A model generated the notes under the pieces. It saw nothing but the letters and a program-made list of their open reading frames with translations. It was not told the origin of the DNA and searched no databases. Of a stretch of 252 bases of DNA, positions 1-125 are shown piece by piece. The position numbers and the translations under genes are program-made. How positions within the stretch are numbered: position 1 is the first letter of the stretch; each line of letters opens with the position of its first letter. Source of the stretch: a phage. Location of the stretch: the sequence record BH153091.1, one strand, 5' to 3'.

Positions 1-86
1 TATATGAATACTCCGTTTTCGAACCAAACGACGGAACTATTCGATTCGAAAAACGTCATCCTACATTCGGTGGCGCAATTGATGTA
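1..86. other. Cloned insert DNA of unidentified origin (non-vector part of a recombinant clone)
   Basis: Sequence 1-86 matches no lac/pUC element I recognise and abuts the polylinker at the BamHI-side junction. It contains two TTCGAA palindromes (18-23, 45-50) and a CAATTG site (76-81). Origin cannot be determined without a database search. Confidence 0.5.
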
Positions 87-125
87 GATCCCCGGGTACC
101 GAGCTCGAATTCGTAATCATGTCAT
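61..125 (-). CDS. lacZ: lacZ-alpha reporter 5' end (vector-borne), interrupted by the polylinker insert; short fusion ORF ends in the insert
   Basis: Minus strand reads ATGACATGATTACGAATTCGAGCTCGGTACCCGGGGATC..., i.e. canonical ATGACCATGATTACGAATTCG... minus one base. First ATG (125-123) gives ATG ACA TGA, an immediate stop. Second ATG (120-118) opens a frame encoding MITNSSSVPGDLHQLRHRM, with TAG at 63-61. MITNSSSVPGD is the known pUC18 lacZ-alpha N-terminus. Confidence 0.8.
87..112. other. pUC18/M13mp18-type multiple cloning site remnant: BamHI-derived GATC junction, SmaI/XmaI, KpnI, SacI, EcoRI
   Basis: Directly seen: GATC 87-90 preceded by A (AGATCC 86-91, BamHI site not regenerated), CCCGGG 91-96, GGTACC 95-100, GAGCTC 101-106, GAATTC 107-112. 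This order with EcoRI next to the lacZ start is the pUC18/mp18 orientation. Confidence 0.9.

Follow-up and report, generated by a model that had tools for sequence, protein, structure and literature searches.

What joined phage DNA to cloning vector in this stretch of sequence, and at exactly which base does the one give way to the other? The stretch analysed here, 252 bases in full and called the window throughout, reads AGATCC at 86-91 on the + strand, where pUC18-type vectors carry GGATCC at the same place. The earlier note had drawn attention to this substitution and had read it as the product of compatible-end ligation into a BamHI site; a site scan and an alignment to pUC-type sequences confirm that AGATCC replaces the vector GGATCC. 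We hold with high confidence that the window is the read of a laboratory clone: 90 bases of Escherichia phage RB49, running from one GATC to the next, sit in the BamHI site of a pUC18/M13mp18-type vector.

The AGATCC hexamer by itself is statistically unremarkable. By chance, 0.08 copies are expected per shuffle of the window, and at least one copy appeared in 16 of 200 shuffles. The site scan found GATC once in the 252 bases and GGATCC nowhere among them. AGATCC becomes meaningful because of its position: identity to RB49 covers bases 1-90, identity to vector covers bases 87-252, and the two overlap in exactly GATC (87-90), a 4-base overhang. Around this core, RB49 reads GATGTA-GATC-AATACG and the window reads GATGTA-GATC-CCCGGG, the phage continuing the junction GATC as GATCA and the vector as GATCC. 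A86 is the phage base and C91 is the base of the vector BamHI site, such that the hybrid, non-regenerated AGATCC (86-91) stands between AGATCA of RB49 and GGATCC of the vector. A GATC core common to insert and vector (87-90), where phage identity stops at 90 and vector identity begins at 87, is the signature of cohesive-end ligation between annealed 5'-GATC ends. In the polylinker alignment, for which U36911 and GQ149343 served as pUC-type references, the vector has GGATCCCCGGGTACCGAGCTCGAATTC and the window has AGATCCCCGGGTACCGAGCTCGAATTC; bases 87-112 of the window (GATCCCCGGGTACCGAGCTCGAATTC) are identical to these references, and the GATCC half of the BamHI site is intact.

The GATC-only overlap of the RB49 and vector identities supports the compatible-end ligation that had been proposed. 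The source genome, NC_005066.1, carries a GATC exactly at the junction; within L001, the RB49 stretch of 3,090 bases that we used for GATC positions and density, it lies at 1587-1590 and corresponds to window bases 87-90. The insert had been placed at base 86 and below, which holds for the insert-only bases 1-86, while 87-90 are common to insert and vector. Searches of viral, genome and metagenome contigs, and of the phage and plasmid collections, recovered no copy of the exact junction, and both halves were found together in 0 of the 56 matching phage records.

Over bases 1-90 the window agrees at every position with RB49 (NC_005066.1 157942-158031, minus strand) and with six further Krischvirus genomes (100% identity), and some 40 more relatives match the insert at 97-99%. 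No phage record matches past base 90. We rejected an origin of the insert in E. coli, given that it has no match in any of 5,426 complete E. coli genomes. The insert-specific RB49 (Krischvirus) DNA at 1-86 (+ strand) comes from the 3' end of RB49p262, whose sense strand is the + strand of the window and whose in-frame translation here is YEYSVFEPNDGTIRFEKRHPTFGGAIDVD. The insert falls within about the last 35 codons of this gene, minus the final five sense codons and the stop, and 30 of about 252 codons lie in the window, cut at both ends by the cloning enzyme. The product of RB49p262 (L001 849-1607) is a hypothetical protein whose N-terminal part matches the Pfam family LprI/DUF1311 (lysozyme inhibitor LprI) with E = 1.3e-5 and a score of 26 bits, the cut-off being 22. 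This LprI-like region comprises residues 24-76 and is not covered by the window, whose bases 1-90 correspond without mismatch to a portion of the 3' end of the gene. The flanks do not narrow the source, because all seven genomes (RB49 and its six relatives) are identical across the insert and both flanks; the choice of RB49 over a sibling phage would therefore rest on history, the sequence giving no preference. Bases 1-90 are the sole phage DNA of the window, all of it already contained in the complete RB49 genome.

The far boundary of the insert can be located in the source genome. In RB49, a GATC at L001 1497-1500 directly precedes the base that corresponds to window base 1 (L001 1501), and no internal GATC lies between it and the junction GATC. 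Since an RB49 GATC stands directly before base 1 and none intervenes, the insert is one complete 90-bp GATC-to-GATC limit fragment. GATC occurs 18 times per 3,090 bases in this part of RB49 (0.0058 per base), and the probability that both ends of an arbitrary segment would abut GATC by chance is about 3e-5. A flank comparison found the left GATC before base 1 in the six identical relatives as well. The earlier note had looked to the other junction for a further GATC-bearing boundary; the insert end does abut a GATC of RB49, and the actual left junction lies outside the window. The left junction predicted for ligation to vector, GGATC followed by the start of the insert, was not found in viral contigs. 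The left neighbour of the insert, lying outside the window, would be either vector or a co-ligated GATC fragment; were the insert a single fragment, the sequence to the left of base 1 would read ...GTCGACTCTAGAGGATC and then continue directly into TATATG. The partial digest that had been suggested cannot be inferred, as a fragment without internal GATC is a limit-digest product. The left GATC of the fragment lies in RB49 within a BglII site, AGATCT (L001 1496-1501), and the right one within AGATCA, so one six-base enzyme could not have made both ends.

On the vector side, a whole-window blastn search of 72,556 plasmids matched bases 87-252 and nothing else. Several different pUC-derived constructs head the plasmid matches, with 97.6-98.2% identity, and all differences from the pUC-type polylinker/lac sequence are single-base indels in the alignment (against two pUC-type sequences, the window reads AGATCCCCGGGTACCGAGCTCGAATTCGTAATCAT... 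and the vector GGATCCCCGGGTACCGAGCTCGAATTCGTAATCAT...). The match to the native E. coli lacI-lacZ intergenic region starts at base 107 and has 96.6% identity. By site scan and pUC-type alignment, the vector polylinker extends over 91-112 with SmaI/XmaI at 91-96, KpnI at 95-100, SacI at 101-106 and EcoRI at 107-112. On the minus strand there follow the vector lacZ-alpha start (113-125), with an ATG at 125-123 and a second in-frame ATG at 120-118, which is one base short (ATGACATGATTACG versus the canonical ATGACCATGATTACG); an M13 reverse sequencing-primer site (121-138), interrupted in the alignment by an extra base, A137 (+ strand); and the vector lac operator, promoter and CAP-site region (139-252), with two single-base deletions (C at 165/166 and T at 211/212) and 97-98% identity to pUC-type plasmids. 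The M13 reverse primer of pUC and M13 vectors has the sequence CAGGAAACAGCTATGAC.

From the lacZ' ATG outward, with the lac promoter on the upstream side, the polylinker presents EcoRI (107), SacI (101), KpnI (95), SmaI (91) and BamHI (86) in that order; this is the '18' orientation of the pUC/M13mp series. The vectors pUC18, M13mp18, pUC118, pK18 and others of the '18' type all have this stretch in common. Because the window ends within the lac promoter region at 252, and this stretch is common to such vectors, pUC18 itself is indistinguishable within the 252 bases from M13mp18, pUC118, pK18 and other derivatives. The earlier identification of the vector was thus right as to pUC18/M13mp18-type sequence and too narrow in naming pUC18. 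From the second lacZ' ATG, the reading frame runs into the insert as MITNSSSVPGDLHQLRHRM and meets a stop after ten insert-derived codons, and such an early stop in the lacZ' frame is as expected for an insertionally inactivated clone.

Four indels distinguish this vector part from the canonical sequence: a G missing at 121, an extra A at 137, a C missing at 165/166 and a T missing at 211/212. That all four are read errors turned out to be only partly right, since other, independent sequences of vector origin also lack the G at 121. At this position (121/122) the window has CATGTCATAG and the canonical vector CATGGTCATAG. The one-base-shorter lacZ' is also present in the PLSDB records GQ149343 and GQ149346 and in ten vector-like contigs from unrelated bacterial genome assemblies (L004-L013), and the missing G may be a genuine vector variant. 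In this variant ACA TGA comes directly after the first lacZ' ATG, and the second ATG keeps the usual polylinker frame. Window bases 118-125 read CATGTCATAGC, the lacZ' start being one base under that of canonical pUC18. The remaining indels, at 137, 165/166 and 211/212, fall in the lacZ ribosome-binding region, at the operator edge and beside the CAP site, all in the distal part of the read. They were seen in no matching plasmid or contig; for the plasmids this is so because the best identity, 98.2%, equals exactly three differences. These three indels are probably single-pass read errors.

Several of the sequences that match the vector part merit comment in their own right. L006 (NZ_KB849228.1), a 1,278-bp contig of Acinetobacter johnsonii CIP 64.6, has an AGATCC hybrid junction (...GTGGCAGATCCCCGGGTACC) about 20 bases upstream of its EcoRI site, together with the one-base-shorter lacZ' variant of the vector. 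The 929 bp inserted there match the P1 derivative MH445380.1 at 100% identity and, in part, IS26 regions, and the contig looks like laboratory-construct contamination in a genome assembly. Six assemblies of marine bacteria hold near-identical vector contigs of ~4,650 bp (L004, L005, L009, L010, L011 and L013), which probably represent one contaminating plasmid common to one sequencing project; at the SmaI site they carry what looks like the start of an mCherry-like fluorescent protein with a synthetic ribosome-binding site. Four short records filed under phages (OR844963.1, OR845556.1, OR848931.1 and Z35638.1; 1.5-3.2 kb) match bases 112-252 only, and these records may contain vector-derived sequence themselves. 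It is conceivable, if rather doubtful, that the shorter lacZ' start marks a distinct and widely circulating pUC18-derived lineage, or else that the small insert reflects selection against larger clonable fragments of a T4-like phage. Such a lineage, if true, would offer a usable marker for tracing laboratory contamination. Neither the vector-lineage nor the insert-selection reading alters the nature of the junction.

Which enzyme made the insert end can be answered from the source genomes, all seven of which have AGATCA at the junction. The earlier note had listed Sau3AI/MboI, BglII and BclI, and the first pair alone fits. A six-base enzyme with GATC overhangs (BglII, BclI or BstYI) is a rival candidate, as AGATCC is precisely how a BglII end joined to a BamHI end is expected to look and the left-hand RB49 GATC sits in a BglII site. 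The source site in RB49 and its six relatives, however, belongs to none of these enzymes: BglII is ruled out by AGATCA in place of AGATCT; a BclI end would have left TGATCC, whereas the window has an A before GATC and the source is not TGATCA either; and BstYI (RGATCY) and BamHI ends are likewise incompatible with AGATCA. Because AGATCA fits no six-base enzyme, we consider an end of that kind extremely unlikely, and the sole fitting enzymes are the four-base ^GATC cutters Sau3AI, MboI, DpnII and their isoschizomers. Phage DNA from dam+ E. coli is expected to carry Dam methylation, a modification that blocks both MboI and DpnII, and Sau3AI would for this reason be the most likely enzyme. A full-text literature search for RB49 with Sau3A found no description of a library; the RB49 'snapshot' paper of Desplats et al. 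in 2002 (J Bacteriol 184:2789) is the likely source for its construction. Phage genomes of the RB49 type are without the T4 cytosine-modification genes, and sensitivity to type II enzymes has been reported for some of them (PMC2993671). According to a 2026 study, the cytosines of one Krischvirus are canonical, those of a 99.96% identical sibling modified (PMC13390438).

Other accounts of the junction have to be weighed against the same evidence. A regenerated BamHI site, GGATCC, with A86 miscalled, might be entertained in a read that has 3-4 single-base indels in its vector part. Every error seen is an indel, however, with no substitution among them, and A86 is the RB49 base at that place, inside 90 bases of perfect identity; with the phage genome carrying an A, we rejected a base-calling error, and the probability that we leave to this account is close to nil. 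The junction could also have arisen in silico, as a chimera of assembly or record editing, or in nature, as a recombinant between a phage and a lac element, and it is true that the collections searched hold no independent copy of it. A synthetic SmaI-KpnI-SacI-EcoRI polylinker is nevertheless absent from native lac, to which the match begins only at 107; the breakpoint coincides with the BamHI site in the vector and with a GATC in the phage, and a GATC also bounds the phage segment on its other side; a 4-base overlap is insufficient to drive an assembler; and the 56 matching phage records include none with both halves. An origin of this type strikes us as scarcely credible. It is very improbable, finally, that the clone is a designed sub-clone or a blunt or Gibson-type assembly rather than a member of a random GATC-fragment library. 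The ends of the fragment are two consecutive natural GATC sites, and the insert is a 3'-end piece of an uncharacterised gene, antisense to lacZ', with no obvious design purpose. Blunt-end cloning into SmaI, which the earlier note had named as an observation that would tell against its reading, would put GGG right after the insert. The window instead retains the vector GATCCCC, with the full CCCGGG intact behind the vector GATC (87-96), and RB49 has AATACG there, so that the CCC at 91-93 is not phage; SmaI cloning is excluded.

We return, then, to the cohesive-end ligation of a GATC fragment. Under this scenario, genomic DNA of RB49 or of a near-identical Krischvirus would have been cut by a four-base enzyme leaving 5'-GATC ends, and a 90-bp limit fragment would then have been joined to a pUC18/M13mp18-type lacZ-alpha vector opened with BamHI in its polylinker. 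In the junction nearer EcoRI, ...GTA would derive from the phage, GATC from the annealed overhangs and C-CCGGG from the vector. The resulting AGATCC would be refractory to BamHI and still cleavable by Sau3AI.

A single-pass read along the + strand would have started on the far, HindIII/universal-primer side and passed through the short insert before entering the vector. The M13 reverse-primer site (121-138) lies inside the window, which goes on for a further 114 bases after it. Priming at that site is thereby excluded, and the read must have crossed the insert from the opposite side; we infer a read direction along the + strand. The insert has 0 errors in 90 bases, and 3-4 indels occur from base 121 onward; these counts are too small for a statistical test, and the placement of the indels is compatible with read quality decaying in the + direction. 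The 5' vector would have been trimmed up to its GGATC, and the 3' vector (87/91-252) left in the record. Trimming would be expected to stop at base 1, because the vector GGATCC matches through GGATC and the window starts right after the left GATC. The start of the window thus suggests that 5' vector was trimmed and 3' vector retained.

The AGATCC site is an ordinary cloning scar of an already known kind, with no biological novelty. Cloning vector makes up about 165 of the 252 bases (87/91-252), or two thirds of the window; this part should be masked, a step whose value is one of data hygiene only. Left unmasked, the vector makes lac, pUC and E. coli sequences turn up as spurious 'phage' matches, and several short 'phage' records that match the lac/vector part appear to give matches of just this sort. 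The case also illustrates that a four-base junction call can be rigorously verified when the source genome is available.

Besides the RB49p262 gene, two known cloning systems come closest to this window. The first is the lacZ-alpha region of pUC18/M13mp18, with which the window has in common the order EcoRI-SacI-KpnI-SmaI-(BamHI), the M13 reverse-primer site, and the lac operator, promoter and CAP site. Compared with that region, the window has four single-base indels, and the backbone (bla/ColE1 or the M13 genes) lies outside it. The G at 121 of pUC18/M13mp18 is missing from the window, so its lacZ' reads ATGACATG, a variant that recurs in other vector-derived sequences. The second is the classical shotgun clone, in which a Sau3AI, MboI or DpnII fragment is placed in a BamHI site, and which has the same retained GATCC, the same genomic GATC ends, the same 4-bp overlap and the same loss of the BamHI site, the flanking insert base being A and not G. 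Here the insert, at 90 bp, is shorter than usual, and the window does not reach the second junction; between this clone and the classical shotgun clone there is no difference in kind.
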